Position numbers and translations under genes: made by a program. The notes below the pieces were generated by a model, which had not been told where the DNA came from, searched no databases, and saw nothing but the letters and a program-made list of their open reading frames with translations. From Bacilli bacterium (GTDB lineage Bacteria; Bacillota_I; Bacilli_A; RF39; UBA660), in assembly GCA_047971315.1 (NCBI GenBank), contig JBKDZP010000004.1, positions 5,466 to 69,465 on the forward strand: a stretch of 64,000 nt of DNA, read 5' to 3'. Of the stretch, positions 22,740 through 41,459 are shown one piece after another. Position 1 is the first letter of the stretch. Each line of letters begins with the position of its first letter.

Positions 22740-22904
22740 TTTTTCCTCCTATTTTATTATGTATTTATATTAAAAATTTAATACATTATATTTAAAAAAC
22801 TCTTTTAATACTTAAAATTGCAATTACAGTTTGATAATGACTTATTAAACTTTACATTTATTAAAAAATGTGTTAATATAAGCTACCAAGGAAGTGAGTT
22901 TTAA

Positions 22905-23567
22905 ATGAATAAAAATTATTTAATATGGGATTTAATTCCAGCTATAAAAGAAATCACAGCATCAAAGGAATATAATTATACTTTCCCAGTTGATAAAATG
23001 ATTGAAACAATATTAGAAATGATGAATCAACCAATAGAAGATAAAAATTTTTCAATTGAAGAAGCAACTTCAGATATACTAAAAAAATTAGAGTTAACTG
23101 AAGATGAATATACTATCTCCAAATTAATTTCTGGTGGAACTATTATTTCTAAAAATAAAAATAATAATTCAATACAGTATTTATTTAGCTATGTTCTTCA
23201 TAAAAAAGAAGATTATTCTAAAATTATTAGTGAATTTTATGATGAAAATTATGAAGAATTATTTTGCTCTATTAATAAAAATTTAAATACTGAAATCGAT
23301 GAAATTAATTGGTGGAATAGAAAAAATGTGAAAAAACAAATTCAAGTATACAATACACTTTTAAATAACAATGAAGCTGTAATAATTGCACAAAGTTATT
23401 TTACTGCTCCTAATTTAGCTAAAGTATTTGAAATGACAAACAATGGTCTTGGAAAAATATTTACTAGTTTATCTTTAAATGATGAACAAGATTTTAGTTA
23501 TTTTGATATTAATGATGAAAAATTTATAGATGAAAATGCAGAATTTGTTAAAAAAAAATTATATTAG
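22905..23567 (+). CDS. Hypothetical protein.
   Basis: A 220-aa ORF with no recognisable motif. Confidence 0.35.
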   Translation: MNKNYLIWDLIPAIKEITASKEYNYTFPVDKMIETILEMMNQPIEDKNFSIEEATSDILKKLELTEDEYTISKLISGGTIISKNKNNNSIQYLFSYVLHKKEDYSKIISEFYDENYEELFCSINKNLNTEIDEINWWNRKNVKKQIQVYNTLLNNNEAVIIAQSYFTAPNLAKVFEMTNNGLGKIFTSLSLNDEQDFSYFDINDEKFIDENAEFVKKKLY

Positions 23568-23652
23568 ATTTTAAATAAAAATCTTTTTAATAATTAAATA
23601 AAATTTATACATATTAAGTAAAGATAAGTAACTTGGAAGGAATGATGTTAAC

Positions 23653-24084
23653 ATGAATATCGATTTTAAAAATGATGACGCGTCTAATAGAAAAGAAAAT
23701 GATTATATCAATTCAAAAATAATTATTGATATAATTGATGATAATGTTAAAAATATAAATGATTCATCTAAATATTACCTTGTTCATATTTTACACAAAA
23801 AAATACATTCTCCATTTATAGTAGGAATATTTACTAATCCTGAAAATGAAAAAAAATGTTATTCTCAAATTGATGAATGTGATCAAACAATTATTTCTGA
23901 TTTAAATAGTACAATTGAAAATGGTATAACTTATAGACTTAACAATTTAAAAAATCTATTAAAAAATAATGAGATTAAAATTATGTCTGTAGAAATGTTT
24001 GAATCTAATACAATTAATGAAATTATAAATATTTCAAAAAATAACAAAAATACACTTATCAAAAAAAGAAAAAATAATTCTTAG
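23653..24084 (+). CDS. Hypothetical protein.
   Basis: A 143-aa ORF. Confidence 0.3.
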   Translation: MNIDFKNDDASNRKENDYINSKIIIDIIDDNVKNINDSSKYYLVHILHKKIHSPFIVGIFTNPENEKKCYSQIDECDQTIISDLNSTIENGITYRLNNLKNLLKNNEIKIMSVEMFESNTINEIINISKNNKNTLIKKRKNNS

Positions 24085-24219
24085 ATGTACAAAAATATTA
24101 AATAAAGAAGTTATATTTAGTATATTTTAAAAAAATAATAAAAAAAAGATAAATTTTTCAATTAATCTTTTTTTTTTACATTAATTTTTTTATTTAAAAG
24201 GTATTATTTTATCAATTTT

Positions 24220-24894
24220 TTAAACAAAATCTTTTTCTTTTAAACTATTTTTTAATTTTTGTTTTATCTTTTCTTCTAATCTAGATACTTGAACTTGGTT
24301 TACACCAATATTATTAGCAATTTCATTTTGAGTTAAATTATCAAAATAACGCCATTTTATTATTTGTTGTTCGGTAATATTTAATTTTTCTAATTCGAAT
24401 TTTAATGCAATTAAAGTATTAATATCCATTTTTTTATCTTCAATAATATCATATAAATTTACTGTTTTCCCTTCAGAGTTTAAATCATCATCTAAACTTT
24501 GAATATTAGTACTATTTGTTATAACACTAATACAATATTCTAATTTACTAGTTGGTATATTTAATTCTAAAGCAATTTCATCAAGTGATGGCACTCTCAT
24601 ATATTTTTGAGTCAATAATATTTTTATTTTTTCGCTTTCATAATATATTTTTTTTAAAGTTGGACTTGGTCTTAATATCTTATCTTCTCTAATATATTTT
24701 TTCATCTCACCTAAGATATGCTTATAAGCATATGTTGTAAATTTAATTCCTAAATTCTCATCATATTTTTTATATGCTTTAAGAAGTCCAATCATACCTG
24801 CTTGATATAAGTCATCTTTATTTTGATACCACTCAAAATAATGAGTAAGTGAAAAAACAAAATTTTGATATTGTTCTATTAATTGATTATTCAT
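24220..24894 (-). CDS. Group-3 sigma-70 family sigma factor (SigF/SigG/SigB-like).
   Basis: 224 aa. Region 2 (DLYQAGMIGLLKAYKKYD...FTTYAYKHILGEM) and region 4 (LTQNEIANNIGVNQVQVSRLEEKI) closely match the SigF/G GISQVQVSRLEKKI motif. Confidence 0.8.
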   Translation of the reverse strand: MNNQLIEQYQNFVFSLTHYFEWYQNKDDLYQAGMIGLLKAYKKYDENLGIKFTTYAYKHILGEMKKYIREDKILRPSPTLKKIYYESEKIKILLTQKYMRVPSLDEIALELNIPTSKLEYCISVITNSTNIQSLDDDLNSEGKTVNLYDIIEDKKMDINTLIALKFELEKLNITEQQIIKWRYFDNLTQNEIANNIGVNQVQVSRLEEKIKQKLKNSLKEKDFV

Positions 24895-27231: not shown

Positions 27232-27966
27232 ATGATAAACAGCAATAATAATATTAAAAATTATGCTATTTTAGAACAACATGATATAACTACAAATCTT
27301 CAAATTCAACTAAATATTAAAAACATAGTAGAAGATGATTTAAAAAAATTAGCTTTAGCTAAAGAAAATATAAAAAAGAAAATGAAAAAAGAAAGTGGTT
27401 TATTACCAATATCCTTAACTAAAGACAAACCAAAAATTAAACAAGAATTAAATAATTTCACTAAACTTATTGAAATCTACTATGATTTGGAAGAGGAAAT
27501 TTCATTAGTAAATGATAAAATAAAAGATTTAGAAAATAAAATTATTTCAACTAATAAAATTATTGAATTTTATAAATATTGTGAAAAAAAGCACGAATTT
27601 AATACTAAAACAGAGATATCTAATATTTTAACTAAATATGAAGATGATTTAGAAATTCAAAAAACTTCATCTACATTTGATAGAAAATACGAAGATGGAT
27701 CTTTTAAATTAAATTTGTTTAATGCATTAACATTTATTCAAACTAAAAGTAATATTGAACCTTTTAATTTTGATGGTAATAAAAATTATGAATTAATTAA
27801 AGATACAACAAAAAAGTTTGATGGCAAAAAAATTGACACCAAATTCGTTAAACTAATTGAAAAAAAATTTAATAAAGATTTTATTCCAAATTTAGAAGAA
27901 TTATTAGAAATAAATGATGTTACATTTGATGATGCAATGAAATCATATAAAATTGTTAAAAAATAA
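27232..27966 (+). CDS. Hypothetical coiled-coil protein.
   Basis: A 244-aa ORF preceded by a strong promoter (TTGACA, 16-nt spacer, TGTTATAAT at 27187-27214). Confidence 0.4.
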   Translation: MINSNNNIKNYAILEQHDITTNLQIQLNIKNIVEDDLKKLALAKENIKKKMKKESGLLPISLTKDKPKIKQELNNFTKLIEIYYDLEEEISLVNDKIKDLENKIISTNKIIEFYKYCEKKHEFNTKTEISNILTKYEDDLEIQKTSSTFDRKYEDGSFKLNLFNALTFIQTKSNIEPFNFDGNKNYELIKDTTKKFDGKKIDTKFVKLIEKKFNKDFIPNLEELLEINDVTFDDAMKSYKIVKK

Positions 27967-28855
27967 TGTTAGATTAAAAGGGGAATTTATGGAAAATAAA
28001 AATAAAATTGATTACACAATTATAAAATATAATCAATTATCAAAAGAGTTTGAAACTAAAAGAACATATAAAAAGACACTTCAAAAGGATTTAAACTATA
28101 ATGATAGTATTAAAAAAATATTAGAAGAAAAAATAAATAATCATGAAAATTTAATTAAAAATAAAAATTTAAAATACTCTAATGCCAGTAAATTTGCACA
28201 AAAACTTTTCAAAATTTCAAGTTGTATAACTTTAAGTACTATAATTGGTAGCAGTTTATTAATTGGAAATTCGGCAATTGGAACTATTTTTGGTAGCATT
28301 ATTGGAATTTCTGGTACATTTGCTACTAGTAGTGCCATTTATCATTTTAAACTTAAAAAAATAAAAGATGAGTTTAAAAAAAATATAATATATTCAAGTA
28401 ATGTATATAGAGCAAGAGATATTAAACAAATTGAATCATTTAATTATAGAATTACGGAATTATTAAAAAAAATATCTTTAGTTGAAAGTGAAATTAATAA
28501 TTTAAATATTGAAATTGATAAGCATAAAAATATTATAAACAATTTTGAAATTGAAAAAACAAATAAAGAAAAGATTTATTTTGAAAAACAAAATAAATAT
28601 ATTGAAAGATTATCTAATTTTATTATTAAAAGTGGAATTGATTTATCCTACTTCAATAATAATCCTGAGGATTATAAGGTAAATAATGCTCCAATTATTG
28701 GCGAAAATAATAGTAAAGAAATAAAAGTAAATAATTTTGAAATTATTCCTATATTAGAACAAATCTTACAATATAATGGAATAAAATTAGATAACTTTAT
28801 TGAAAATGATATTGATTTAACACATAGGTTAATAAAGGTAAGAAAATCACGCTAA
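27953..28855 (+). CDS. Hypothetical membrane protein with a coiled coil, co-operonic with the previous gene.
   Basis: 300 aa. The central Gly/Ser-rich transmembrane helices read ITLSTIIGSSLLIGNSAIGTIFGSIIGISGTFATSSAIYHF. The start overlaps the upstream gene. Confidence 0.4.
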   Translation: MLKNNVRLKGEFMENKNKIDYTIIKYNQLSKEFETKRTYKKTLQKDLNYNDSIKKILEEKINNHENLIKNKNLKYSNASKFAQKLFKISSCITLSTIIGSSLLIGNSAIGTIFGSIIGISGTFATSSAIYHFKLKKIKDEFKKNIIYSSNVYRARDIKQIESFNYRITELLKKISLVESEINNLNIEIDKHKNIINNFEIEKTNKEKIYFEKQNKYIERLSNFIIKSGIDLSYFNNNPEDYKVNNAPIIGENNSKEIKVNNFEIIPILEQILQYNGIKLDNFIENDIDLTHRLIKVRKSR

Positions 28856-29232
28856 ATAGTGTGATTTTTATTTTTTATAAATTCAGTTAGAATTTTAGTT
28901 AATGCTCTTTTTTCTATTCTAGATACATAACTTCTTGATATTCCTAATTTTTTAGCAATTTCTTTTTGAGTTACCTCTTTTTGATTTTCTAAACCATATC
29001 TATTTATAATTATTTCTTTTTCTCTATCATTTAAAATACTTAAATATTTTTTTAGATAATTAATATTATTTTGATTATGTATATCCAAAGCAAAATCTGG
29101 ATTTGGAGTTTTTAATATATCTAATAATGAAATTTCATTACCTTCTTTATCAAAACCAATTGAATCATTTAGACTAATATTTTTACTGTTTTTTTTATCA
29201 CTTCTAAAATACATTAATATTTCATTTGCTAT
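28852..29232 (-). CDS. sigK: 3' segment of a split sigK gene (spoIIIC-like; SigK regions 3-4). The in-frame upstream part of the ORF table entry (to 29319) is element sequence.
   Basis: [18 protein letters not shown]...[45 protein letters not shown] is near-identical in pattern to B. subtilis SigK ([18 protein letters not shown] ... LDDREKEVI..RFGL...[26 protein letters not shown]). Confidence 0.8.
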   Translation of the reverse strand: [126 protein letters not shown]

Positions 29233-30931
29233 CTTCGCATTGTGGAACAAATTTCTTTTCGCTTGTATTATTTTCACCGTCATTTTCATTAAAAAAATTA
29301 ATGAATAATGTTTCTCCATCAGTTTTAACTGAATGTATTAAAGCTCTAAGTAATGTTCTTTTTATTTCTAATGATAAGCTATCAAAAGTAGTAAAGTATG
29401 TATTAATGATATTTAATATAATTTCAGCTTGTGTCTCGTCTAATATATTACTATTAGAACTACTATTTTTAACCTCATTAATTTTAATATATATTTCTTT
29501 GTTTTTATCTTTTAGTTCTTTAATTTGTATATTGACTCGATTTAAAGCTTCACCGTCCAAATATAGTATTTTGCTAATGTAATTTTGAATTTCTTCTTCA
29601 TTTTGTTTATATGTTTTTTCAAAAAGTCTTAACTCCATAATATTTTTATCTTCTTCTTTATATTTTCCTTTGGACATATCAATAAGTTTTTTATAAACTT
29701 TTCCTGTAGGTGCAATAAGTTCTTTTACAGTATTCATAACTAGACTATCAACTTCATTACCACTAACATTAGGACATGTACATTTAGATTTACGACTTTT
29801 TTCTTTTAGTTCACACATATAATTAAAAACTAATTGACCTTCTTTATTAGTATAGTTTTTTAATTTAGGACGCATATAAGAACCACAATGAGAGCAACGA
29901 ATTAAACCAGATAGTAAAGCGTTATTTTTAGTCGGCTTTCTGTATCGTTTGTTTCCGTTTTGTTCAATTAATTCTTGAATTTCAATCCATTCTTTACCTG
30001 ATATGATTCCTTTATGCATACCAACAGAGATAATCCAGTCTTGGATATCGCGTTCATTAGTCGTTTTTCCTTTAATTTGCTCTGTTTTATTATAAACCAT
30101 TAATCCATATTTACCATTAAATTTATCTTCGTCTGCATATATTTCTACACCTAATTCTAAAAAATAATTATAAATATCTTTATCGGCAACAACATATACA
30201 GGATTTTGTAAAATATTTTTAATAGCAAACCTAGAAAAATCTATATTATTTTTAGTTTTTATATCATGTTGTATAAGATAAGTTTCTAATTTAGTTTGCG
30301 ATTTTAACTCTTTGTATTTTATATATATATTTTTAATAATATCAATTTCATCTTTTATAGGTGTTAATTTAAATAAACTTCTTTCTTTACCATCAATACT
30401 TATGTTTTTAACTTTCTCTGATTTAAAGCCTGTTGGAGTAGTACCACCAAGCCATCTACCAGTTTTTGCTAACTCTAACATATTATCACGGATTCTTTCT
30501 GCAATAGTATCTCGTTCTAATTGAGCAAAAACGCTAGCTATCATTAACATTGCTGTTCCTAATGGAGTAGAGGTGTCAAAATTCTCTGTTATTGAAATAA
30601 AGCTAACATCATATTGTTGTAGTGTATCTTTCATATTCGCAAAGTCAGACACATTACGACTTATTCTATCTAACTTGTAACAACATACACCTTTTATTTT
30701 TTTATTTTTAATATCATTAATCATAGATTGAAACTGTGGTCTTCTAGTATTATATCCCGTAAAGCCTTCATCTTCATATACCACAACTTCTTTTTCAATA
30801 TCTTCTATATTATATTTATATTGTAGGTGCTTTTTGCAAAGTTCTACTTGATTACCAACGCTATCTCCTTTGCCAGTAAATTTAGATTTTCTAGAGTATA
30901 TAGCCCATTTTTTGTTATTATCTTTATTCAT
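29222..30931 (-). CDS. Large serine recombinase (SpoIVCA-like) of the sigK intervening element.
   Basis: 569 aa. N-terminal resolvase domain (AIYSRKSKFTGKGDSVGNQ), a recombinase domain, and a zinc ribbon (CSHCGSYMRP...CELKEKSRKSKCTC). Its stop codon lies inside the recombination core at the element/sigK junction. Confidence 0.85.
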   Translation of the reverse strand: MNKDNNKKWAIYSRKSKFTGKGDSVGNQVELCKKHLQYKYNIEDIEKEVVVYEDEGFTGYNTRRPQFQSMINDIKNKKIKGVCCYKLDRISRNVSDFANMKDTLQQYDVSFISITENFDTSTPLGTAMLMIASVFAQLERDTIAERIRDNMLELAKTGRWLGGTTPTGFKSEKVKNISIDGKERSLFKLTPIKDEIDIIKNIYIKYKELKSQTKLETYLIQHDIKTKNNIDFSRFAIKNILQNPVYVVADKDIYNYFLELGVEIYADEDKFNGKYGLMVYNKTEQIKGKTTNERDIQDWIISVGMHKGIISGKEWIEIQELIEQNGNKRYRKPTKNNALLSGLIRCSHCGSYMRPKLKNYTNKEGQLVFNYMCELKEKSRKSKCTCPNVSGNEVDSLVMNTVKELIAPTGKVYKKLIDMSKGKYKEEDKNIMELRLFEKTYKQNEEEIQNYISKILYLDGEALNRVNIQIKELKDKNKEIYIKINEVKNSSSNSNILDETQAEIILNIINTYFTTFDSLSLEIKRTLLRALIHSVKTDGETLFINFFNENDGENNTSEKKFVPQCEDSK

Positions 30932-31117
30932 AAAAACATCTCCGTTCCTTTATGTGTATATTATAAATATATTATAACATAAAAACAACTATTATAATGA
31001 CTATTTTTATAAAACCCGAAAAATATAATATATTAATCCTTAAAAGATTTTATGTTATCAAAATATCAATTATACTTGGTGGTTGAAGAACTAAAAAAGC
31101 ACAATTTACATTGTACT

Positions 31118-32230
31118 TTAAAAGAAATCAATTATTGATGAAATATTAATAGTATCCAAATTATTTGCTTTAATAAATACTTTTAATGCTTTATCCTCAA
31201 CTTCTTTTAATATTATATTATAAGTTATACCATTATCTAACTTTGGAGCATAGAAACACGCAAAATCTCCAGACATAAAACCTAAATGATTATTATCTTT
31301 ATCAAGAACCTTAATGGCGTTTTTATCATATTGATTGTTATTGTCTCGTTCAAGATATAATTCATCATCAATTAACAGCTTTGAAACATGTTGTGCTCGC
31401 TCTTTAAAAGTTATCCCTACAACAGTTATAATATTGCTCATAATATTAATTTTTTCATTTTCCCAGTTAGGAATAATACTGCTGTATTTTTTATTTAACA
31501 AATAATATATATCACTATCAATTATTATTAATTTTTCGTTCGGAAATTTTTCTAAAAACAACTTTGTATTTTGCAAACTTCTATAATCAATATGTCCTTT
31601 TACTTCAATAAGTGTTTTGTTTTTTAAAATAAAGTCAGGTACATATAACTGTGAGGCATATAGATAGCTAGAGTTTTTAGAATCTAATTGAAATCCATCA
31701 GTTTCATACTCAAACTCAATATTTAAATGCTTTAAAGTTCTAGCTACATTTGCTTCCCATGATGAACGAACTTCCATCTGTAAATCATCTCTAAATTCAT
31801 TTTTAAACTGTTGACTATAATTGTTTTCTTCATGATTAGTTAAAGCATTATCTAAATTTTTATCATTTACAGTTTCCTTATCTTTTTTAACTAAATTATT
31901 AATAAACTCGTCATTGTCTTCTGGCCACTTTGAATAACTACAATTAGGAAATGTTGAGCATCCATAAAAGTATTCATTAGTTTTTGTTTTCTTTACTAAC
32001 AAATCATTTCCACACTCTGGACATTTTCCAAACACTATATTACTATTGTCGTTTTCTTTTTCAATATATTTACAATTAGGATAATTAGAGCAACTGGTAA
32101 ATTCTCCAAATCTACCACGTCTTCTGACTAAATCATTTCCACATTTAGGACATTTCCCTACAATGATAGGCTTACTCTCTATATTAGTTTTATGAATATT
32201 AGTTAATTTCATAAAAGCACCTCCATACAA
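31118..32230 (-). CDS. Fusion protein: two TopoIA-type zinc ribbons, a PD-(D/E)xK-like nuclease and a C-terminal HIRAN domain.
   Basis: Two CPxCG...C..C ribbons (CPKCGNDL..CSNYPNC and CPECGNDL..CSTFPNC). A middle YVPDFILKNKTLIEVKGH region is D...ExK-like. The C-terminus reads VVGITFKER...YDKNAIKVLDKDNNHLGFMSGDFACFYAPKLDNG, a HIRAN pattern. Confidence 0.5.
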   Translation of the reverse strand: MYGGAFMKLTNIHKTNIESKPIIVGKCPKCGNDLVRRRGRFGEFTSCSNYPNCKYIEKENDNSNIVFGKCPECGNDLLVKKTKTNEYFYGCSTFPNCSYSKWPEDNDEFINNLVKKDKETVNDKNLDNALTNHEENNYSQQFKNEFRDDLQMEVRSSWEANVARTLKHLNIEFEYETDGFQLDSKNSSYLYASQLYVPDFILKNKTLIEVKGHIDYRSLQNTKLFLEKFPNEKLIIIDSDIYYLLNKKYSSIIPNWENEKINIMSNIITVVGITFKERAQHVSKLLIDDELYLERDNNNQYDKNAIKVLDKDNNHLGFMSGDFACFYAPKLDNGITYNIILKEVEDKALKVFIKANNLDTINISSIIDFF

Positions 32231-32302
32231 ATATATTATACCATAACTTACTCGAATAGAGTAATACTAATTTTTTCAATAAATGAGAAAATATAAATAG
32301 AT

Positions 32303-32551
32303 ATGTGTGGTGATAAAATGTTTGATAGAACTAATGAAAATTTTGTATATGAATTAGTTAGCAAGAATATTAAAAAGCAACGACAGTTAAAAGGTTGGAC
32401 TCAAGAAGAGTTGGCTGATAAGATAAATTATTCTACTCAGTTTATTTCTAATATTGAAAGCAAAAACCTTCAAACGTTTTCACTGGGAACACTATGGAGA
32501 ATAGCGCTAGTATTAGAAGTTGATATTGCTACTTTTTTTCAAGAAGATTAA
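32303..32551 (+). CDS. XRE-family HTH transcriptional regulator (Cro/cI-like).
   Basis: LVSKNIKKQRQLKGWTQEELADKINYSTQFISNIE is an HTH_3 motif. Confidence 0.7.
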   Translation: MCGDKMFDRTNENFVYELVSKNIKKQRQLKGWTQEELADKINYSTQFISNIESKNLQTFSLGTLWRIALVLEVDIATFFQED

Positions 32552-32691
32552 TTCTTCTTTTTTTGTAAGAAGAAAGCAAAAATTCTTTTGCTTCCGAGGT
32601 TTATACTAAAAAATATGGATTTTCAGTTGTAAAATACCCCTATATATTGTAAAAATATATAATTATACATTATATTATGTTCAGGTAAAAA

Positions 32692-33657
32692 TTACTTACT
32701 ATTCTTTAACACATCTTTCTTCTTGGATGTGTTTTTTTCATGTATTTGTCTAACTTTATTTCGATAGTTAATCATTTTAGCTGTGTTAGCTTCTTCTTCT
32801 TTTTTACGTTCTTCATAATCAAGCTTAGCACTAAGATTCATTTTAGTATATTCTTTAGGGGATAAAATATCAGGTTGTTCATAGTTATTAATAGTATTTG
32901 CTAATTGTGCATTATCAATCTCTTGTTTCTTTTTTTCAGAGTATTCAATCCATTTTACAATATCTTTTGATTTTCTGATTCTTTTCATTAACTTTTGAAA
33001 AGCGAGCATTGCCTTAAGTTCATATAATTGCTCATCTTCATCATTGTAGAAACAATTATCAAGCATGGTTTTAGCCTCACATATTTCCTCACCTTTATCA
33101 TTAAAAAAACTCTGTGTTTCATTGATAAAATATTTATCATCAATGTATGGATTTTCTTTACTAGGATAAACCATATAAGAAAGTATGTCCCTTAATATGT
33201 TTTCATCTACACTTGATATTAAAGTGTTATAGAAAACTAAAGCACTATTTTCATGACTATTAATAAGACCACCATTGGGAACTGGTTTTGAACTGTTGAA
33301 TCTGCCATTAAATCTGTTAACGTTTTCTGCCATCATGACTCTAGCTTGTTTATTTAATAAACTCTCACCATTAGTTAAACTACTTTTATAATCAATCCCT
33401 AAAACATCTTTAACATCCAAGTCATAGGTTGTAATCATTGAAATTAAGTAACTAAAATTTTGTATACCTTTACCGCTCTCGTAATTTTTGATTGTTGTTT
33501 TAGAACAACCTAGAATCCTAGACACTTCTGTTTTTGTTAAACCTTTTCTGTCTCTTGCACTTTCTAAAGTCTTTCCTATTAATTTAGTATCCATAATTAT
33601 ACCTCCATCAAGTCCAATTTTGTGGATTATTATTATAACAATCCACAAAATCAACAC
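32692..33657 (-). CDS. XRE-family HTH regulator with a long C-terminal domain (repressor-like).
   Basis: N-terminal HTH (LIGKTLESARDRKGLTKTEVSRILGCSKTTIKNYESG) plus about 230 aa of unknown C-terminal domain. Confidence 0.55.
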   Translation of the reverse strand: MLILWIVIIIIHKIGLDGGIIMDTKLIGKTLESARDRKGLTKTEVSRILGCSKTTIKNYESGKGIQNFSYLISMITTYDLDVKDVLGIDYKSSLTNGESLLNKQARVMMAENVNRFNGRFNSSKPVPNGGLINSHENSALVFYNTLISSVDENILRDILSYMVYPSKENPYIDDKYFINETQSFFNDKGEEICEAKTMLDNCFYNDEDEQLYELKAMLAFQKLMKRIRKSKDIVKWIEYSEKKKQEIDNAQLANTINNYEQPDILSPKEYTKMNLSAKLDYEERKKEEEANTAKMINYRNKVRQIHEKNTSKKKDVLKNSK

Positions 33658-33900
33658 TTTTTATAACATAATTGTATCACAAACTTTTATATATTAAAAT
33701 CTTATCAGTTGCCGATAATGTAATTGTTAGCAACTGTGGATATATAGATACTGTAGTAATTAAGAATAGAAAACTAAATAATGATTTATGTGCTTAGAAT
33801 CGTTATTTATAAGCATTTTTCTAATTTTAATATAGGTATCTATAAATTCCTATATCTTCATGAAGAATATATGTATTTTTACCTATAAGGAGGTGTTTTA

Positions 33901-34398
33901 GTGGCAAGGATGTTGTTTGATAAAGATACTGGTGAATTAATTGGCGAGTTTGATGATAACCAAATTATCATGTCCTATGATATCAATAATTTACGTAGAG
34001 GACATTTAAACAAGAAACTATTCTATAAGTTTTATGTTGATTCGGTTAATATCTTTACAAGTGGATTATTAACTTTACCGGTTGTAAACACATTTTTCAA
34101 TTTAATTAAACACCTTAATATGAATATGAATGAATTTGTGTCATTCAACGGAATGCCTGCCAATATAGAACAAATTGCAACTAAGTTTGACGTTAGTAGA
34201 AAAACAATTTCTAATCATTTAAAGATGTTAGAAAAACATGATATGGTACGAAAAGTGAAAGTTGGTAGGCAACGACATATTTTAATTAACCCATATTTTA
34301 TTAGTTATGGAAATAACAACACAGATGAATCACTAACAATATTTTCTAATACAATTTGGGCGAAAACTACGTTTAAAAGAAGGAGAAAAATAAGATGA
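33901..34398 (+). CDS. RepL-like winged-helix replication/maintenance protein.
   Basis: 165 aa. The stretch NEFVSFNGMPANIEQIATKFDVSRKTISNHLKMLEKHDMVRKVKVGRQRHILINPYFISYGNN parallels the pSN2 RepL segment NNTMIATTREIAKATGTSLQTVITTLKILEEGNIIKRKTGVLMLNPELLMRG. Confidence 0.45.
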   Translation: MARMLFDKDTGELIGEFDDNQIIMSYDINNLRRGHLNKKLFYKFYVDSVNIFTSGLLTLPVVNTFFNLIKHLNMNMNEFVSFNGMPANIEQIATKFDVSRKTISNHLKMLEKHDMVRKVKVGRQRHILINPYFISYGNNNTDESLTIFSNTIWAKTTFKRRRKIR

Positions 34399-34676
34399 AA
34401 AATATAAAAAAGGCAATAATGCTTTTAACTAGAATAATGACCGATTTTGATTGGCAGGATGGAATAATTGAGAAAAATGGAAAAGCAATAAGTATTTCAA
34501 AAATAAGGGAGTATTTTCAATCAAATGGTAGTTTTTTTTATCAATCGATTAGACTTTTAGAAAATAATGGTTTTTGTAAAAGAAAAAGATTTGATGGAAA
34601 AGAAAAATACTTGATATTAGATAATCGTTTATTGTATCGTTTTCAAACAATGATTAGTGGTGAAAATGATGAGTAA
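34395..34676 (+). CDS. Hypothetical protein.
   Basis: A 93-aa ORF coupled to its neighbours. Confidence 0.3.
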   Translation: MKNIKKAIMLLTRIMTDFDWQDGIIEKNGKAISISKIREYFQSNGSFFYQSIRLLENNGFCKRKRFDGKEKYLILDNRLLYRFQTMISGENDE

Positions 34677-34905
34677 GTTTCACGTTAAGATAGAAGAACA
34701 AGAATCTTGGACTTTCTATGATTATGAAAATAAAACTGTCTCAATATGGACAAATCGTCCTAGTTGTGCAAGAAGAATATCGAAAGTCTTAGGCGAACCT
34801 GATGGAGGAATATCACCGTGGGCTAGTTGGCTTATTTCATTCGATGATAAAGTCACTATTAGAAAAGCATCAGCAATTAATAATTTTTTGCCATTATCCA
34901 AATAA
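34657..34905 (+). CDS. Hypothetical protein.
   Basis: An 82-aa ORF overlapping the upstream stop. Confidence 0.3.
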   Translation: MVKMMSKFHVKIEEQESWTFYDYENKTVSIWTNRPSCARRISKVLGEPDGGISPWASWLISFDDKVTIRKASAINNFLPLSK

Positions 34906-34945
34906 ATTAAGTTTAGTTTCATAAACTTTATTAGGAGGGATTGCT

Positions 34946-35131
34946 TTGAAAGTGGTGGTAAACTTACCTTTTGAAGAAGACGATAAAAACATTTTCGAAG
35001 ATAAGATTGCTACTTTTCATGCAACCTTACTTCTAGAAACAATAGATAAACTAGATATCAATAATCAAAACAAGAAAATAATTTTAAATCATATTCTTAA
35101 TAAACTTAAAGAATTAAATTTAAATAATTAA
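34946..35131 (+). CDS. Hypothetical small protein.
   Basis: 61-aa ORF. A terminator hairpin (CCTATAT/ATATAGG + T-run) follows at 35138-35168. Confidence 0.3.
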   Translation: MKVVVNLPFEEDDKNIFEDKIATFHATLLLETIDKLDINNQNKKIILNHILNKLKELNLNN

Positions 35132-35201
35132 AAATAAGCGCCTATATTGTTAGATATAGGTGTTTTTTGATGATATAATGTATATATATGGGGTGATAAT
35201 A

Positions 35202-36581
35202 TTGAAAAAGAATGTGGAACATGGAGTCGTTAAATATAAAGACAAAGATTATACTTACTCTTATAAAGATAATATTATTACACTGACGCCAAAAGAATTA
35301 GAACCATATTGGCAAAGTATGTTTAAAAAATTTAAGAGAGAAGAAAAAGAAGAAAATGTTTATGGAATAACTAATTCAAACTTCCCAGTAGCATTTATAA
35401 AACTTAATTTAATAGATATAGGTGGCGGAGTTTTGCAAGCTTTTGTTCCTGCATACATTGTTGCAAACGCAAATACAGTATCGCCATTACCAGAAATAAA
35501 TAATTTTAAATCAATGACTTTTTATGGTGATTGCATTAATTCTTTATATAATCCTAAACAAATGATTAAGGATTCAGATGTAACAAAAAAATACAAGCCT
35601 TATATGAAATTTAAACATCCTAAAGAAGTTATAAAAAACATACTAGTTAACAAACTTGACTTCATATTTAGGATTACATGGGAGTTTCCTATTAAAGATA
35701 AAGTACCTGCTGTGCTTTTAAAGTCTTTGTTAGAAATAAAGTTTGATAGTAAAAAAACTATTGATGAAATTATAGAATACTATCAGCAAGTTAAAATGCT
35801 GTTTAGTTTCATTAATAATAGGCACTATATAGAATTTTCAGACATATTATTAAAAGCTGATATGTTTGTTGAAGACTTTCCTGATAAAAAAGTTAGAAAT
35901 GTTGGAGTAAGCTATAATTTATATATTATTCTTCCAAAAGATGTTAAAGTTGATTTACCTAATTCAATATATGAAACAAGGTTGAATAAGATTGAAAATC
36001 AATTTGAGAATTTATTTAATACTTTAAATAAATGTGGTGGTTATAATTTACATTTTCCAGATAATCAATATGATGAAGACCACGTTGATATAGATAAATT
36101 TTTAAGAGTTGCATCCGCATTTGAATCATGGTTTGATATTAATTTTGATGACTTCAAATCTGATACTGACTTATTATATAAAATTTTAAAAAATGATGTG
36201 CTAAAATTTATTGCAGAAAGAGGAAAAAATACAAATGCCACTGGTAGAGACTATTTAAAACGTTTTAAGAATGAAATAGAACGTCAGGAGGGTACTTTGT
36301 TAGAGCAATTGTTGTATTCATATCAAATCTTTGAAAATTGTGTCAAAAAGGTTAAAGAACGAATATATAGGCATTATAATTTAGATGATGTAAAAATAAA
36401 TGATATCTTTCTAGCTTTAGCAAAAAAAAGAAATCGCTTATCGCATGGCGATATAAACGATTTAGGATTTTCAAAAGAAGAGATAGTTGCATTTATAATT
36501 TTAGAGAGATTAATTCAATGTTTAATATATTATAAGGCAGAATTTAGCTTAGATTCAATAAGCGAAATAGTTGATAAATAG
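35202..36581 (+). CDS. HEPN-domain abortive-infection-like protein (ApeA-like N-region plus a C-terminal Rx4H HEPN motif). The TTG start at 35202 is favoured over the table's ATG at 35160.
   Basis: GGGTGA lies 5 nt before TTG. The ATG at 35160 sits inside a TGATATAAT extended -10 element (35171-35179). The C-terminus LAKKRNRLSHGDINDL carries the R-x4-H HEPN catalytic signature, as in Abi_2 (AbiD/AbiF) and ApeA-HEPN proteins. Confidence 0.5.
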   Translation: MKKNVEHGVVKYKDKDYTYSYKDNIITLTPKELEPYWQSMFKKFKREEKEENVYGITNSNFPVAFIKLNLIDIGGGVLQAFVPAYIVANANTVSPLPEINNFKSMTFYGDCINSLYNPKQMIKDSDVTKKYKPYMKFKHPKEVIKNILVNKLDFIFRITWEFPIKDKVPAVLLKSLLEIKFDSKKTIDEIIEYYQQVKMLFSFINNRHYIEFSDILLKADMFVEDFPDKKVRNVGVSYNLYIILPKDVKVDLPNSIYETRLNKIENQFENLFNTLNKCGGYNLHFPDNQYDEDHVDIDKFLRVASAFESWFDINFDDFKSDTDLLYKILKNDVLKFIAERGKNTNATGRDYLKRFKNEIERQEGTLLEQLLYSYQIFENCVKKVKERIYRHYNLDDVKINDIFLALAKKRNRLSHGDINDLGFSKEEIVAFIILERLIQCLIYYKAEFSLDSISEIVDK

Positions 36582-36586
36582 GAGGA

Positions 36587-37729
36587 ATGACTATGATTAT
36601 ATATAATTTAATGGACATAGCAAGGAAACTTAAAATTGATTTTGATGGAATTACTTCAAAAATTGAGCATAATGGTCAAAAAGGTGATACTCGAGAAGAA
36701 TTGTTAAAAGAAAGTCTAGCGCAATTTATACCACAAAAATATAGTATAGGAAATGGAATAATAGTAGATAGCAATTTGGTTCAGAGTAAGCAACAAGATT
36801 TTATTATCTATGACGGATTTAATAGTCCTCTTATGTTGAAAAAGCAATCAATGCAAGTTGTACCAATCGAGAGTGTATATTGCACAATCGAAATAAAGTC
36901 TACATTAACAAAAACCGAATTAGAAAAGTGTGTAGCTAATATTAAAAGTGTTAGAGAATTAGAAAAAGTTTGTTTACAAACATCAGCTATCGTATATGAA
37001 AACGCAAATAATACTATTGGATTTGTTTTTGCCTATACTTCTGATAGTTCTTTAGACACAATTTATGAAAATTTAGTAGAAATGAATAAATTGATAGAGC
37101 CACATCACCAAATCAGTGGAATATGCATTTTAGATAAGGGATTAATATTAAACGTTTCTAAAAATGGAATGAATCAATTAGAATTATATCCAAATAAAAA
37201 TAGTACTCTATGTTGTTCTGATAATCCTTTAGAAAATAATTTGTATTTGTTTTATTTATTAATACTTCAGCATTTAAATATTTCAAAATTATTGCCACCA
37301 GATTTAATTAAATATGCCGAGAAACAAAATGCGTTTAATATTAGGTCACATATGAAAATAGAATTATTACCAGATGATGGAAAAGTAAATATAATGGATG
37401 GTTTAACTTTTGATGTGAAAGATGTAAAAAAAATAAATGAAATACATTCACGAATGACACCCTTTTTTAATGGTAATTGTAGTGAGCAAGAAACTGAAAA
37501 GCATCTTGTTGAAAATATAATTCCTATGCTTGAAACATTTAGTAAGTACCAAACCGTTGGCGGTGTTATAGGAGGTAATAATAATGAACCAATTTTACCT
37601 TCTGATTTTGAATTTATCAAAACAACTTATTGTAAAAAAACGAATAATGAAAAAATAACCGAGGAAGAATTGGTAAAATATAATAACTTAATTACATCAT
37701 TTGTTTCAAAAAAAGATTCAACGAATTAA
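36587..37729 (+). CDS. PD-(D/E)xK nuclease-like protein (possibly DUF6602-like), co-operonic with the HEPN gene.
   Basis: 5-bp gap to the upstream gene. The N-terminus reads GDTREELLKESLAQFIPQKYSIGNGIIVDSNLVQSKQQDFIIYD...VVPIESVYCTIEIKSTL, which gives the D...E-x-K restriction-endonuclease-fold signature. Confidence 0.4.
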   Translation: MTMIIYNLMDIARKLKIDFDGITSKIEHNGQKGDTREELLKESLAQFIPQKYSIGNGIIVDSNLVQSKQQDFIIYDGFNSPLMLKKQSMQVVPIESVYCTIEIKSTLTKTELEKCVANIKSVRELEKVCLQTSAIVYENANNTIGFVFAYTSDSSLDTIYENLVEMNKLIEPHHQISGICILDKGLILNVSKNGMNQLELYPNKNSTLCCSDNPLENNLYLFYLLILQHLNISKLLPPDLIKYAEKQNAFNIRSHMKIELLPDDGKVNIMDGLTFDVKDVKKINEIHSRMTPFFNGNCSEQETEKHLVENIIPMLETFSKYQTVGGVIGGNNNEPILPSDFEFIKTTYCKKTNNEKITEEELVKYNNLITSFVSKKDSTN

Positions 37730-37851
37730 ATTTCTTGAATTTTTTTAATATACTTATGATACTACATTTCAAATAATTGAAAATAAAAAATATTATTTTT
37801 ACATGCAGACATTTTAAATGATATAATATTCTTAGTAAAGTAAGGTGAATT

Positions 37852-39576
37852 ATGAATATATTAGAAGAGTTAAATAAAAAAGGTGTTACTTTAAACATTA
37901 GGTACTGTGGAGCTGATGATATGTTAACTGGGTTTATGGCAAAAGAATTGCTAGAAAATCAAGATGATATTTTAAAGCATTATCAACATAATAAAATTGA
38001 TAATGTTAATGAATATATAGATTATATATTTTTAGAAATATTAATGAAATTTTTTGAAATTGTACCACTAATCATTATTGAAGAAAAAAGAGAATCATTT
38101 AAGCAATTTTTAGATAAATGTAAAATAGTATATGACAAATATATAAAGAAAGACGTTATATTTTTTATAAAAAACCATTATTTAGATATTTATAGTTATA
38201 AAGATAATGAAGACAGCAGTTTATTTTTAGAACTTGATTTAAAAGATTATACTTCTATTTTTATTGGTATGAATTTTAATTCATTTTCTATAACAATAAT
38301 TGATTATGTTATTACAATTGCAACTTTTGATGTTATAGATAGTTTTGAAATTTGGGGAAAATATTTTTATAAAAATCCTAATCAACTAAACAATCTTTTT
38401 AATGAAGAAAATATTAAAAAAGTTTTTAACATGAGGTTTTCAGAAGTTAGTGATATTCTAGAAGCTTTAAAACCGAATAAAAAGTTTTCGACTATAATTT
38501 CTAATACAATTGATATTATATATGGAATAGTGAAGGAAAACTACTTTAATCCGAAAGACGACACAGGAATTTGGCAAAGTTATTATATGTTAAATGATAC
38601 ATTAGTCTTTTTAAAAAAAATGAACTCAACTTATATTTACGAGCTTGAAAAAGAATTATATCAAATAGAAATAAAGTTTAATGAAAATTTAATGAAAACA
38701 GGTTACACAAGTACTTTTGAGTACAACTTAAAACCATTTGTAGAGTTTTTTGAAAACAAAACCAGTCCATGGGAAGTTAGGATTGTTTACTTAACCCATT
38801 TTCAAGATAAAGAAGGTAATTTATGTAGTTTTTTAGAACATGGTGCTAAATCTAATATAAAAGCTTTGAGCGATGAAATTGCTAGAAAAAATCCTGGAAC
38901 TGATGACTATTTTACTAGTTGGAGGTTAAGGAATTTATCATTACAGATATTTGAAATAAAAGCACGCATAATGTCTATATTTCAAAAAAAAGAAAATGTT
39001 AGTGAATATATTTCTGATATATATGGTGAGTTAAAGTATATTTGTGAAAATAACAATACTACAATGGAACTAGAAGAATTAACTGATAATGTGGAGATGC
39101 TATCACAATATTTAGCTGATTTGTTTATTAATTTATCGACCGAGAAATCTACAGAAATGACAATAAAAAATACTATTTATGGATGTTCAATCTTTGTATG
39201 TAGTTTAATAGAAAAAGTTCTTCGTATTATTTATAAAAATAGTTTAAGGGAAATATTATATATACCCGATTCTGGTATTACATTAGGTACATTACTTAAG
39301 GAAGAAGATAAAAATAATAGTATTATAATTGACATATTGGGTAAGGAGCAAATAAAGTGCCTTAGATATTTTTTACATAAAACTGAAAATGGAATTGGTG
39401 ATAATATAAGAAATGATTTGGCTCACTTAAATGGTAGAACTCCAAGACGGTTAAATTATGATTTAATTACTGAACTACTTTCATATTTAAGCTCTATACT
39501 AAATAGTTGCGTATTATATTATCAAAGACAAACAAATAATAAGTCAAAGGAGTTAGATTCTATTGAAAACAGCTAA
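37852..39576 (+). CDS. Large protein with a C-terminal HEPN (DUF4145-like, RN..AH motif) domain.
   Basis: 574 aa. The C-terminus GIGDNIRNDLAHLNGRTPRRL carries R-x4-H. It has its own promoter (TTTACA ... TGATATAAT at 37819-37827) and AAGGTGA ribosome-binding site. Confidence 0.45.
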   Translation: MNILEELNKKGVTLNIRYCGADDMLTGFMAKELLENQDDILKHYQHNKIDNVNEYIDYIFLEILMKFFEIVPLIIIEEKRESFKQFLDKCKIVYDKYIKKDVIFFIKNHYLDIYSYKDNEDSSLFLELDLKDYTSIFIGMNFNSFSITIIDYVITIATFDVIDSFEIWGKYFYKNPNQLNNLFNEENIKKVFNMRFSEVSDILEALKPNKKFSTIISNTIDIIYGIVKENYFNPKDDTGIWQSYYMLNDTLVFLKKMNSTYIYELEKELYQIEIKFNENLMKTGYTSTFEYNLKPFVEFFENKTSPWEVRIVYLTHFQDKEGNLCSFLEHGAKSNIKALSDEIARKNPGTDDYFTSWRLRNLSLQIFEIKARIMSIFQKKENVSEYISDIYGELKYICENNNTTMELEELTDNVEMLSQYLADLFINLSTEKSTEMTIKNTIYGCSIFVCSLIEKVLRIIYKNSLREILYIPDSGITLGTLLKEEDKNNSIIIDILGKEQIKCLRYFLHKTENGIGDNIRNDLAHLNGRTPRRLNYDLITELLSYLSSILNSCVLYYQRQTNNKSKELDSIENS

Positions 39577-40591
39577 TATAAGTAGAAACAATCATTTTGT
39601 TTCACAAATGTATCTTGATGCCTGGAAAAATACTAACAATAAAGTCATGGTGTATGATTTACTAGTTCCAAATGAAAGGGTACCAATATGGACTCCTAAG
39701 TCCACAAAAAGTGTTGGTAGTATGGATAGTTTATTCGTAAGACTTAAGCATGACAAAGAAATAGATGATATAGAAAAATGGTTTTCAACAGAATATGAAT
39801 ATCCTGCTAAGGATGTATTAGAAAAAGTGATTAATGAAGATAGAATTAGTGAAGAAGAATGGCATAAATTAATTGATTTTGTTGCTTGCCATATTGTTAG
39901 GTCACCATCATTTCTAATAAGAACTTTAGAAACAGCTAAAAAAGATTGTATTCCAATTTTTGAAGAGGAAGCCAAAGAAATTCCAGAAAAGATTAAAAAT
40001 AAAATTAAAAAATCGGTTGCAAAAAAAGATTACGATGATGAACTATTTCCATTAAAAGTAACCAATATTGGTGACGATGAAACTGGTGAAAATAGTTTAT
40101 ATAAAGTAGAGACAATATTTGGAAAGCAATTCTATTTGTGGATAATGAAACACTTGCTAGGAAACACATGTAAGATTTTACATAAGCATAAGTGGTCAAT
40201 TATAACAGTAGACGAAAAAGTAATTTTACCAACTAGTGACAATCCTGTTGCATGTATTAATTATAACGATGAAAATGATTATAATTTTGTTGGAGGTTGG
40301 GGACGCAAAAACAGTAATATTTTGTTTCCTATTTCACCAAATAAAATATTATATACACAGGTTGGCACTAAACGTATTCCAAGAATAAAAGCTACTTATG
40401 AAATGAGTCTAATATTCAAAAAAATTATAGTTGAAAATTCATATAAATGCATAATTTCAAATTTTAATGATGATGAAATTCCTAAGATAAAACCAAGAGT
40501 AGTAGATTTAAATATTTTTTTGGAGGAAAAAGAGAAATGGAAAGATTTTCAAAAAAATTATATTGAAAAAGAATCAGAATTTATAAAATAA
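39563..40591 (+). CDS. DUF4238-family protein (the family used by the single-gene Rst_DUF4238 anti-phage system), translationally coupled to the upstream HEPN gene.
   Basis: The N-terminus NNHFVSQMYLDAWKN matches the DUF4238 hallmark (HYVPQFYL.(N/R)F). It overlaps the upstream ORF by 14 nt. Confidence 0.5.
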   Translation: MKTANISRNNHFVSQMYLDAWKNTNNKVMVYDLLVPNERVPIWTPKSTKSVGSMDSLFVRLKHDKEIDDIEKWFSTEYEYPAKDVLEKVINEDRISEEEWHKLIDFVACHIVRSPSFLIRTLETAKKDCIPIFEEEAKEIPEKIKNKIKKSVAKKDYDDELFPLKVTNIGDDETGENSLYKVETIFGKQFYLWIMKHLLGNTCKILHKHKWSIITVDEKVILPTSDNPVACINYNDENDYNFVGGWGRKNSNILFPISPNKILYTQVGTKRIPRIKATYEMSLIFKKIIVENSYKCIISNFNDDEIPKIKPRVVDLNIFLEEKEKWKDFQKNYIEKESEFIK

Positions 40592-40611
40592 TTAATCAAT
40601 ATTATACAAAA

Positions 40612-40643
40612 AAAGATTTAATGGACTAATTCCTTAAATCTTT
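40612..40643. terminator. Bidirectional hairpin terminator between convergent genes.
   Basis: A perfect 10-bp stem AAAGATTTAA/TTAAATCTTT with a 12-nt loop, flanked by A/T runs. Confidence 0.45.
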
Positions 40644-41121
40644 TATAGTGCTCTTTAGACATTGTATTCATACCATATTCCCATCTTTTAATTGTTGTAT
40701 AGCTAACTTTCATTCTTTTTGCTAATTCAGTCTTACTAATATTTTCTTTTAATCGGTATTCTATTATTTTTTGAGAGGGATTATCTAAAAGAAAACCTAT
40801 ATATGTGTTTGACTTCTTTAGTGGTTCAGCATCTATTTTATCAATAATAGCTTGTACAAATTTTTTGTCATAGTATTTGATATTTTTATTATTTTCTACT
40901 GCCATTATTTTATCTCGAGATACATTTAATAAATCTGCTAACTCAGTTTGTTTTATATCATTTAGACGCCTATAATATTTAATCTTTTTACCTAATTCAC
41001 TTTGCTTATTAATAATTGGCAATTTCTTATTAGAATGAAGTTTATATGAATGATTTAGATTTACTTTATTTTTGATGTTTTTATATAGTACATGAATACC
41101 TAAATATAGTTCCATGAAGTT
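40618..41121 (-). CDS. Double-HTH XRE-family regulator at the right end of the element. The start is uncertain; the table ORF reads across the sigK junction.
   Basis: Two HTH_3 motifs (LGKKIKYYRRLNDIKQTELADLLNVSRDKI and IIEYRLKENISKTELAKRMKVSYTTIKRWEYG). Confidence 0.5.
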   Translation of the reverse strand, partial: NFMELYLGIHVLYKNIKNKVNLNHSYKLHSNKKLPIINKQSELGKKIKYYRRLNDIKQTELADLLNVSRDKIMAVENNKNIKYYDKKFVQAIIDKIDAEPLKKSNTYIGFLLDNPSQKIIEYRLKENISKTELAKRMKVSYTTIKRWEYGMNTMSKEHYKRFKELVH

Positions 41122-41124
41122 ATC

Positions 41125-41459
41125 ATTGCATTTTCTATACATCTAGCACAGTAAGTAGTTATTCTAGTACCATGTTGATATGAGTAACTATCTACTCCTT
41201 TAATTAATCCAATTGTTCCAATGCTTATTAAATCATCAGTATCTTCTTTTTTATATTCATATTTTTTAACTATATGAGCTACTAATCTTAAATTATGTTC
41301 TATAAGTTTATTTCTTGCTTCTAGATCACCTAGTTTAGCCTTTTTAACGCATTCTTCCTCCTCTTCTTTTGATAATGGATTTGGAAAAACATTATTTGAA
41401 TATGCTGCAGTAAAAAGATAAAAGTCTTTAAATAAATATCTAATTATTTTTAAAAACAA
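41125..41459 (-). CDS. sigK: 5' segment of the split sigK (spoIVCB-like: pro-sequence plus regions 1.2-2). The last residues of the ORF (MITSWNYI) are read-through into the element.
   Basis: [89 protein letters not shown] parallels B. subtilis SigK [90 protein letters not shown]. Confidence 0.8.

Follow-up and report, generated by a model that had tools for sequence, protein, structure and literature searches.

The 64,000-nt stretch analysed here (the window) is part of contig JBKDZP010000004.1 of GCA_047971315.1, the metagenome-assembled genome (MAG) of a Bacilli bacterium (RF39; UBA660). In the window the sporulation sigma factor gene sigK is split by an element of 11,906 bp (41130..29225), both halves of the gene being on the minus strand, and the coordinates bear out the original prediction, made from the letters alone, that two SigK halves lie about 12 kb apart on the same strand. 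On its anatomy we take the locus to be a skin-type (sigK-intervening) element. The two halves are co-oriented and intact, sigK is restored precisely and in frame when they are joined, and the element carries its own large serine recombinase at its edge. The features are collected in Table 1.

The interrupted sigK gene and its junctions

The 5' fragment of sigK encodes a pro-sequence of about 19 residues and region 2, and ends with ...ARCIE and the AA of the Asn110 codon. Reading on past the junction completes Asn110 (41132..41130) and adds nine codons of foreign sequence (AMITSWNYI) before a stop. The 3' fragment resumes at the GAA at 29223 and runs to a stop at 28852, with a terminator-like hairpin (28842..28869) at the 3' end of the gene. 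The insertion point is at nucleotides 329-330 of sigK, in the Asn110 codon of RCIEN-EILM (the hyphen marks the break), inside Sigma70_r2.

The join proposed in the original prediction, of 41459..41131 to 29224..28852, gives an uninterrupted SigK open reading frame (ORF) of 233 aa, and a join anywhere within AAATG gives the same single in-frame product. The joined protein is above both relevant NCBIfam cut-offs, with 315.9 bits against NF004471 (cut-off 252) and 303.4 bits against the SigK equivalog TIGR02846 (cut-off 298.65), and its score for the SigE family is far under the SigE cut-off. The claim that both halves match B. subtilis SigK residue for residue went too far, as the N-terminal half has 57% identity to B. 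subtilis pro-sigmaK over 107 collinear, ungapped residues. The pro-sequence is of comparable length in the two proteins.

Uninterrupted sigK genes are present in relatives, as the prediction had anticipated, and in one of them (L004) 45 of 48 nt match the reconstituted attachment site attB. Full-length SigK proteins of 231-233 aa and 78-84% identical to the joined protein are on record in large numbers. No intact SigK of more than 84% identity was found in the protein collection that includes the proteins of this MAG, and no protein record matched the 119-aa attL form of the 5' fragment.

With regard to the junctions, an imperfect core of 15 bp had been proposed, and its coordinates stand but each core is 14 nt long. 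The attL and attR cores match at 12 of 14 positions, with the central AAATG common to both. In silico joining of the sigK halves predicts attB as TGTATAGAAAATGAAATATTAATG, and joining of the element ends predicts attP as GATAGCAAATGCAATGATAAC. Across 15 attL/attR pairs from this and related elements the only bases always shared are AA, at codon positions 1-2 of the Asn/Lys codon, as would be left by the 2-bp crossover of a serine recombinase. The arms of attP are dyads that co-vary by lineage (GTTCCA/TGGAAC, GAGCCG/CGGCTC, GAAGCCA/TGGCTTC and TTCCAAC/GTTGGAA), which is typical of an attP. A 12/14 repeat is not by itself above chance in DNA of 25% G+C, where there are many longer imperfect repeats, and a repeat search of the window gave only chance-level A+T-rich repeats, the cores being too short to stand out. 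What gives the repeat weight is that it lies at both break points and is conserved in relatives.

As the source is metagenome-assembled, and the sample has only short Logan contigs, one has to ask if unrelated contigs were joined by an error of assembly or binning. However, the right junction occurs again in L081, a contig from an independently made Logan assembly of a different run, and the left junction in Logan contig L251 (run SRR30067233), and the same junction sequences occur in dozens of unrelated assemblies. With both junctions in independent contigs, and an attB like that of intact genes, a chimera is unlikely, and we consider such an artefact hardly credible.

In contig L251 (L251:1-40, equal to 41159..41120 of the window) the first base of the element comes after exactly 30 nt of host sigK, with which the contig opens. 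This is k-1 for a graph of k=31, as a branch between attL and intact attB would produce. There is no matching break in the right-end contig L081.

The recombinase and the tandem-HTH reading frame at attL

The recombinase, recorded at NCBI as exactly the protein MFV0249746.1, matches Pfam PF00239, PF07508 and PF13408, and so has the make-up of a large serine recombinase: a resolvase catalytic domain with its nucleophilic Ser, a Recombinase domain, and a zinc ribbon into which a coiled coil is inserted. In the family alignment the motifs YSRKS and LDRISR show no variation, and the solved chains nearest to the recombinase are TP901-1 and SPbeta integrase. It had been predicted that a 569-aa recombinase ends in a junction core, and this is correct for the core at attR: the TGA stop (29224..29222) is made up of the TG of the core and the first host base, and so is formed at the right junction.

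At the other end of the element an ORF with tandem helix-turn-helix (HTH) motifs adjoins the 5' part of sigK, directly downstream in the same orientation and in the +1 frame. Its protein, like the recombinase, is on record identically at NCBI under “MAG: Bacilli bacterium”, from a contig of 144 kb. When the element is circularised in silico the recombinase (...FVPQCEDSK) is in frame with this ORF (CNDNFMELYLG...), giving a fusion of 739 aa, and we read the tandem-HTH ORF as the detached C-terminal domain of the recombinase. The fusion aligns end to end with P0071, a real ORF of 753 aa, with 48% identity over 733 residues and no gap at the junction. The contig that encodes P0071 is 7.5 kb long, is without sigK fragments and has an intact attP, GAGAATAGCAAATGCGCACCTCACATTACGGAAC, inside the ORF; its terminal direct repeat of 141 bp shows it to be circular.

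The same holds across the family. One free ORF divided by integration, which is what defines a partitioned integrase, is found in three contiguous free forms and in silico in 15 of 16 complete elements (about eight lineages), in which the virtual circle adds 146-253 aa in frame to the recombinase. The detached domain of every lineage carries tandem HTH_3. A contiguous long recombinase of about 695 aa is encoded by the IMG/VR viral contig L206, and of the top 150 cluster representatives about 14 have contiguous long forms. Purifying selection acts on the detached HTH domain, whose dN/dS in comparison with L082, a close relative, is 0.15; the value for the core of the recombinase is 0.08. On this evidence attP sits within the recombinase gene, so that integration divides both this gene and sigK, and excision would repair the two together.

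The element at L128:1806-8690 is the exception, in that circularisation adds only 8 codons and no detached HTH ORF was seen. This copy may have degenerated or become domesticated.

Other searches with these proteins gave little. A word-based homologue search with the HTH domain found only 8 stand-alone relatives, a PDB sequence search with the same domain had no match, and a single-protein scan with P0071 found nothing. There is no clear ribosome-binding site or conserved start codon before the detached HTH domain. In the literature searched we found no description of a serine recombinase partitioned by attP, which is no proof of novelty.

Related elements and gene content

A scan of metagenomes by means of the recombinase family alignment gave 75 relatives (41-59% identity) with enough flanking DNA for evaluation. 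In 66 of them the recombinase end abuts a sigK fragment at the RCIEN-EILM codon, while the cargo varies: the C-half of sigK is at the recombinase stop, on the same strand, at 60 loci, and the N-half is on the opposite strand (inverted insertion) at 6. The skin-type architecture of the original prediction, an in-frame split of sigK with an edge recombinase beside the 3' half and short shared cores, is supported for the window and recurs in these 66 relatives. Both junctions are available for 16 elements of 3.4-11.9 kb; each of them has the Asn/Lys codon of RCIE(N/K)-E(I/V)LM as its insertion point and keeps both sigK halves intact. Loci with recombinases 84% (L082/L083) and 69% (L084) identical to that of the window have the same layout, with a Sigma70_r4 fragment immediately downstream and a Sigma70_r2 fragment at the far end.

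Recombinases abutting 5' sigK on the opposite strand were seen in L112, L114, L123, L124, L129, L146 and L168, and indicate that the clade inserts in both orientations. Nine relatives of 41-52% identity (L092, L093, L106, L130, L140, L147, L152, L159 and L163) have no adjoining sigK fragment despite enough flank, and may be free forms or have other targets. The Paenibacillus loci L032 and L035 each have two RCIENEILM-encoding stretches in different DNA, pointing to two sigK-like genes within about 20 kb.

There is also evidence of mobility. L082:2500-11708 and L083:2347-11555 have 1 difference in 9,208 nt, whereas the 5' sigK DNA next to them shares only 65% identity and the genes nearby are RecD2-like in one and RbfA/TruB in the other. 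Near-identical elements in clearly different sigK genes indicate very recent horizontal transfer, in this case within the samples of one study. That L082 and L083 might be one species was considered and rejected, on the divergence of the flanking sigK and the different neighbours. Some family members also carry genes for a rolling-circle Rep, a D5-type primase or a type IV secretion system (T4SS) coupling protein. The family is still mobile, and the window element is not merely a fossil.

An all-vs-all comparison of the ORFs of 14 elements left only three shared genes, for the recombinase, the detached domain and a protein of about 60 aa (61 aa in the window). The small protein is also present in circular L087 and in the minimal element of 3.4 kb, L137:8327-11696, which consists of the detached HTH domain, the small protein, one XRE regulator and the recombinase. 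Pfam and PHROG searches with the 61-aa protein gave no match. Its size is close to that of Skr (64 aa, PMC6957869) and CD1234 (72 aa, PMC5025042), and it is the best candidate for the role of recombination directionality factor (RDF).

The small gene and the recombinase gene appear to have promoters of different kind. CATAnnnT is the -10 shared by sigmaE and sigmaK promoters, and a motif of this type, CATAAACT, precedes the 61-aa ORF; 15 nt upstream of the motif there is an ATA, and downstream of it the ribosome-binding site GGAGGG. CATAnnnT is found 26-40 nt upstream of the small gene in five of seven lineages (Poisson-binomial P about 5e-6, post hoc). The recombinase is preceded by a putative sigmaA-type extended -10, TGTTATAAT, conserved as ATGTTATA(A/C)TATA followed by AAGGAAC-GAG in the window, L082 and L084, which points to constitutive expression. 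Both motifs would function as promoters on their sequence and position.

From attR to attL the order of genes is recombinase, zinc-ribbon/HIRAN protein, XRE pair, small operon, four cargo genes on the plus strand, and the HTH ORF. The divergent XRE pair resembles a switch of the CI/Cro type, and the gene order of the winged-HTH operon is the same in L082. No phage structural genes were detected in the element. In the window and in L082 the cargo is placed between the small gene and the detached domain, while in other elements these two genes are adjacent and convergent, so that the gap between them looks like the point at which cargo is inserted.

Table 1. Features of the sigK locus and of the element, from attL to attR, in window coordinates
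Feature	Position	Strand	Remarks
5' sigK fragment (spoIVCB equivalent)	41131..41459	-	TTG start at 41459; Sigma70_r2 match
attL core ATAGAAAATGCAAT	41125..41138	-	likely crossover AA at 41132..41131
Tandem XRE-type HTH ORF, 165-174 aa as called	40618..41142	-	HTH_3 x2; next to attL
DUF4238 protein (PADLOC “DUF4238-Pers”)	39563..40591	+	Pfam 3e-27; PADLOC 8.5e-11; also in L082/L083
574-aa protein	37852..39576	+	no family match; C-terminal RNDLAH (Rx4H) motif; paired with DUF4238 in relatives
DUF6602/NucC-like PD-(D/E)xK nuclease	36587..37729	+	Pfam 2.8e-30; PADLOC PD_DExK 1.4e-39, NucC effector 8e-31
473-aa protein	35160..36581	+	RNRLSH (Rx4H); weak ApeA_NTD1 Pfam match (1.5e-4), below cut-off
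61-aa protein (KVVVNLP...IATFHATL)	34946..35131	+	candidate RDF
CATAAACT, sigmaE/sigmaK-type -10-like motif	34920..34927	+	26 nt upstream of 61-aa ORF
Winged-HTH operon: 165 aa, 93 aa, 82 aa	33901..34905	+	165-aa protein with weak DnaD-like match; leads into 61-aa gene
Divergent XRE-type pair, 321 aa	32692..33657	-	Pfam HTH_3; PHROG repressor/regulator families
Divergent XRE-type pair, 82 aa	32303..32551	+	Pfam HTH_3; PHROG repressor/regulator families
Protein with two Topo-type zinc ribbons, endonuclease-I-like and HIRAN	31118..32230	-	conserved in L081, L082
TGTTATAAT, extended -10 (sigmaA-type)	30971..30979	-	upstream of recombinase
Large serine recombinase, 569-aa integrated (truncated) form	29222..30931	-	Resolvase + Recombinase + Zn_ribbon_recom
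attR core ATAGCAAATGAAAT	29219..29232	-	likely crossover AA at 29226..29225
3' sigK fragment (spoIIIC equivalent)	28852..29224	-	Sigma70_r4 match; T of Asn110 to ...HTI and stop

In the case of the cargo, the original prediction spoke of a set of putative anti-phage genes. Matches to defence-associated domains support this, but PADLOC found no complete known defence system in the window element, the NucC-like nuclease being without a cyclase, and we regard the description as a reasonable reading of the domains. The single-domain or candidate PADLOC matches are to the NucC-like PD-(D/E)xK nuclease, to DUF4238-Pers and, for the HIRAN protein, to PDC-M03B. The 574-aa protein may be HEPN-like, to judge from its Rx4H motif. 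L082 lacks the pair of ApeA-like and NucC-like genes, and the L084 element encodes a restriction enzyme of the EcoO109I type together with a C5 methylase and an AAA_13 ATPase. A set of 48 cargo proteins from the family contains a pair for type II restriction-modification, as well as an AAA_13 ATPase, a protein kinase and ATPase_2/DUF234; its PADLOC candidates are PDC-S06 (1e-196), PDC-M14A/B, PDC-S27 and PDC-S02.

Outside the element, the neighbourhood at 21307-24894 includes a near-complete SpoVAD (390.9 bits against a cut-off of 402) with a 148-aa ORF upstream of it, and a 224-aa SigF/G-family sigma factor (24220..24894) that is below every equivalog cut-off. With these genes nearby the host looks like a spore-former. 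The sigK-like match at 24253..24888, within the last-named ORF, was tried as a second sigK and rejected, as it belongs to this SigF/G-family protein. ParC/ParE, YneF and SMC are also encoded in the window. Directly downstream of the 3' end of sigK, and convergent with it, are two adjacent plus-strand ORFs of 244 and 300 aa (27232-28855), of about 19% G+C, with Lys/Asn/Glu/Ile repeats and no family match. A search of the whole window with Rfam gave no family at gathering score, and so no riboswitch, tRNA or other curated RNA.

Proposed excision, rival explanations and known systems

Among the programmed DNA rearrangements of developing bacteria, elements that interrupt sigK are the classic example. 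We think it likely that the window holds a site-specific element of this type, lodged in the sigK Asn codon of a very A+T-rich, spore-forming Bacilli bacterium and excised in the mother cell. The large serine recombinase would recombine attL with attR at the AA dinucleotide, and the element would leave as a circle, restoring both the 233-aa pro-sigmaK gene and a recombinase of about 740 aa. The recombinase would be made constitutively from its sigmaA-like extended -10 promoter, with timing and direction set by the small protein behind its sigmaE/sigmaK-like CATAnnnT promoter, on the logic of the C. difficile pair CD1231/CD1234 and the B. subtilis pair SpoIVCA/Skr. In the mother cell the element would be lost and sigmaK gained, and the spore would keep the element. 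Integration, conversely, would detach the C-terminal tandem-HTH domain and leave it just downstream of the 5' part of sigK.

How the divided recombinase might be used is a matter for more tentative suggestions. It is possible that the division acts as a switch of state, the free element making the enzyme of about 740 aa and the integrated element the 569-aa core, together with an HTH domain that lies in the sigK transcription unit. It may also be, though we would not put it higher than a speculation worth pursuing, that the two isoforms, or an HTH domain made upon transcription of sigK in the mother cell, set direction and timing jointly with the small factor, and do so across a large clade, still mobile, of small islands that carry defence genes in gut Firmicutes.

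Several points weigh against developmental excision as we have described it. Excision of the window element in the mother cell is argued by analogy. The original prediction had also raised the case of an intact second sigK; a search of the 64-kb window found none, its sole other sigma-like ORF being SigF/G-like, and a divergent copy may lie elsewhere in the genome. An exact search of IMG/VR with the attP of this element had no match. The divergent XRE pair looks like an induction switch of phage type, which could bring about excision whether or not the cell sporulates. The CATAnnnT test was framed after the sequences had been inspected, and the motif is missing in two of the seven lineages. 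No convincing site was found upstream of sigK itself in a search with the sigmaE/sigmaK pattern, and a generic scan of the element for promoters and terminators was uninformative (109 promoter-like sites against 103 expected).

The strongest rival is that this is an ordinary mobile element (a satellite, mobilisable island or prophage remnant) that uses the conserved sigK as its attachment site and leaves by its own switch rather than by development, carriers being sporulation-deficient until it does so, as in the “active lysogeny” at comK. The CI/Cro-like pair, the Rep, primase and coupling-protein genes of family members, the existence of a free circular form, the very recent transfer between hosts and the occurrence of related recombinases in real phages are all in keeping with this. 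However, the motif before the small gene is of the mother-cell type in five of seven lineages, the halves of sigK are intact in all 16 complete elements, and the sigK-intervening elements that have been studied experimentally all excise during sporulation (PMC5025042, PMC6957869, PMC10745906). The ordinary-element and developmental models are not exclusive in any case, as SPbeta does both (PMC4191935), and we consider an element with no developmental role unlikely.

It could also be argued that sigK is dead, in a lineage that no longer sporulates and in which the insertion is neutral and decaying. The host is an uncultured MAG of very low G+C, the named relatives nearest to it bear the labels Erysipelotrichaceae or “Tenericutes”, and these groups are known for loss of sporulation genes (bioRxiv 10.1101/2022.02.25.481979). 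However, the halves are free of stops and frameshifts, the joined protein is above its equivalog cut-off and has 78-84% identity to numerous full-length SigK proteins that equal it in length, SpoVAD and the SigF/G-like sigma factor are within 20 kb, and recombinase, detached domain and attachment sites are intact and show purifying selection. We regard a dead sigK as very improbable, and retain excision in the mother cell as the best account.

In uncultured gut-type Bacilli, as this locus shows, the sigK slot is used by small, recently transferred islands with a core of recombinase, HTH domain and small protein, and with swapped cargo that includes restriction-modification and candidate defence genes. 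The notion that such cargo would stay in the germ line and be shed in the dying mother cell is attractive, but it holds equally for every skin-type element. The partitioned recombinase, if true, would be an undescribed coupling of integration state to the form of a serine integrase. Serine integrases are widely used tools of genome engineering and the control of their directionality is an active question, for which the family offers a natural set of attB, attP, integrase and candidate RDF with co-varying sites.

Comparison with the known skin-type elements shows both resemblances and differences. They have been reported in at least 15 Firmicutes; in the survey of 15 by Galperin et al. 2022 (bioRxiv 10.1101/2022.02.25.481979) they have sizes of 2.6-48 kb, the recombinase always at the edge and usually immediately upstream of the 3' half, and no cargo common between elements. 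That survey does not extend to uncultured Bacilli or Erysipelotrichia-like MAGs, and the text consulted describes neither an attP-interrupted recombinase nor a conserved small protein nor cargo for defence.

The B. subtilis skin element has in common with the window element a sigmaK pro-sequence, a large serine recombinase and a junction within about 10 nt (...TGTATTGAAAATGAGATT-GTAATTAC in B. subtilis and ...TGTATAGAAAATG-CAATG in the window). However, it is a defective prophage of 48 kb, in contrast to an island of 11.9 kb. The comparison with SpoIVCA that the original prediction called for, made with the exact database entry AAA22314.1 (cisA), gave 25.2% identity (E 3e-28), which is membership of the same superfamily and not close kinship. 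SpoIVCA lies beside the 5' half of sigK, convergent with it, and is unsplit with its stop about 40 nt before the junction, whereas the window recombinase lies beside the 3' half, co-oriented and truncated by the junction. The latter is an analogue or distant homologue of SpoIVCA, not an orthologue. The skr gene overlaps the 5' end of spoIVCA, while the candidate small gene of the window is about 4 kb from the recombinase.

At 14.6 kb the C. difficile element skinCd is in the same size class as that of the window, and it also has its recombinase at the edge. Its recombinase gene CD1231 is apparently constitutive, of sigmaA type, with the small factor behind a mother-cell promoter (PMC5025042), and the window element appears to be arranged alike. 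C. difficile sigmaK has no pro-sequence, whereas that of the window has one. Two classes of attB in sigK have been described. One is the B. subtilis site; the other, near nt 427 and lying between sigma regions 2 and 4, serves skinCd, skinCt of C. tetani and PhiS63 of C. perfringens (PMC3442830, PMC7192596). The window element, at nt 329-330, is like its clade in the neighbourhood of the B. subtilis site. Targeting at this spot is either ancient or has arisen repeatedly on exceptionally conserved DNA.

An attP inside the genes of an integrase or element has precedents in the SSV1-type archaeal integrases, in intP/intX of Mx8 and in the integration-dependent immunity of mycobacteriophages. In those cases, as in the window, the integrated and free states encode different proteins. 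However, they involve tyrosine recombinases or repressors, whereas in the window a serine recombinase loses a tandem-HTH domain and a developmental gene is reciprocally split. Nearer in sequence is the integrase of Clostridium phage vB_CpeS-CP51 (NC_021325, 655 aa), with 42% identity over the recombinase core. The gene (L248:2498-4465) encodes a C-terminal XRE-type HTH and has a perfect 12-bp dyad, TTGTCTTTTTAT...ATAAAAAGACAA, between core and HTH, which is probably the attP of that phage; core and HTH are thus contiguous here, as in the free form. CP51 is a full siphovirus, and its dyad region is without similarity to sigK.

Skin-type elements are already known, and what is added to them here is a recombinase gene partitioned by integration, a small protein conserved in the family, a site specificity that holds across the clade, and evidence of recent transfer between hosts.

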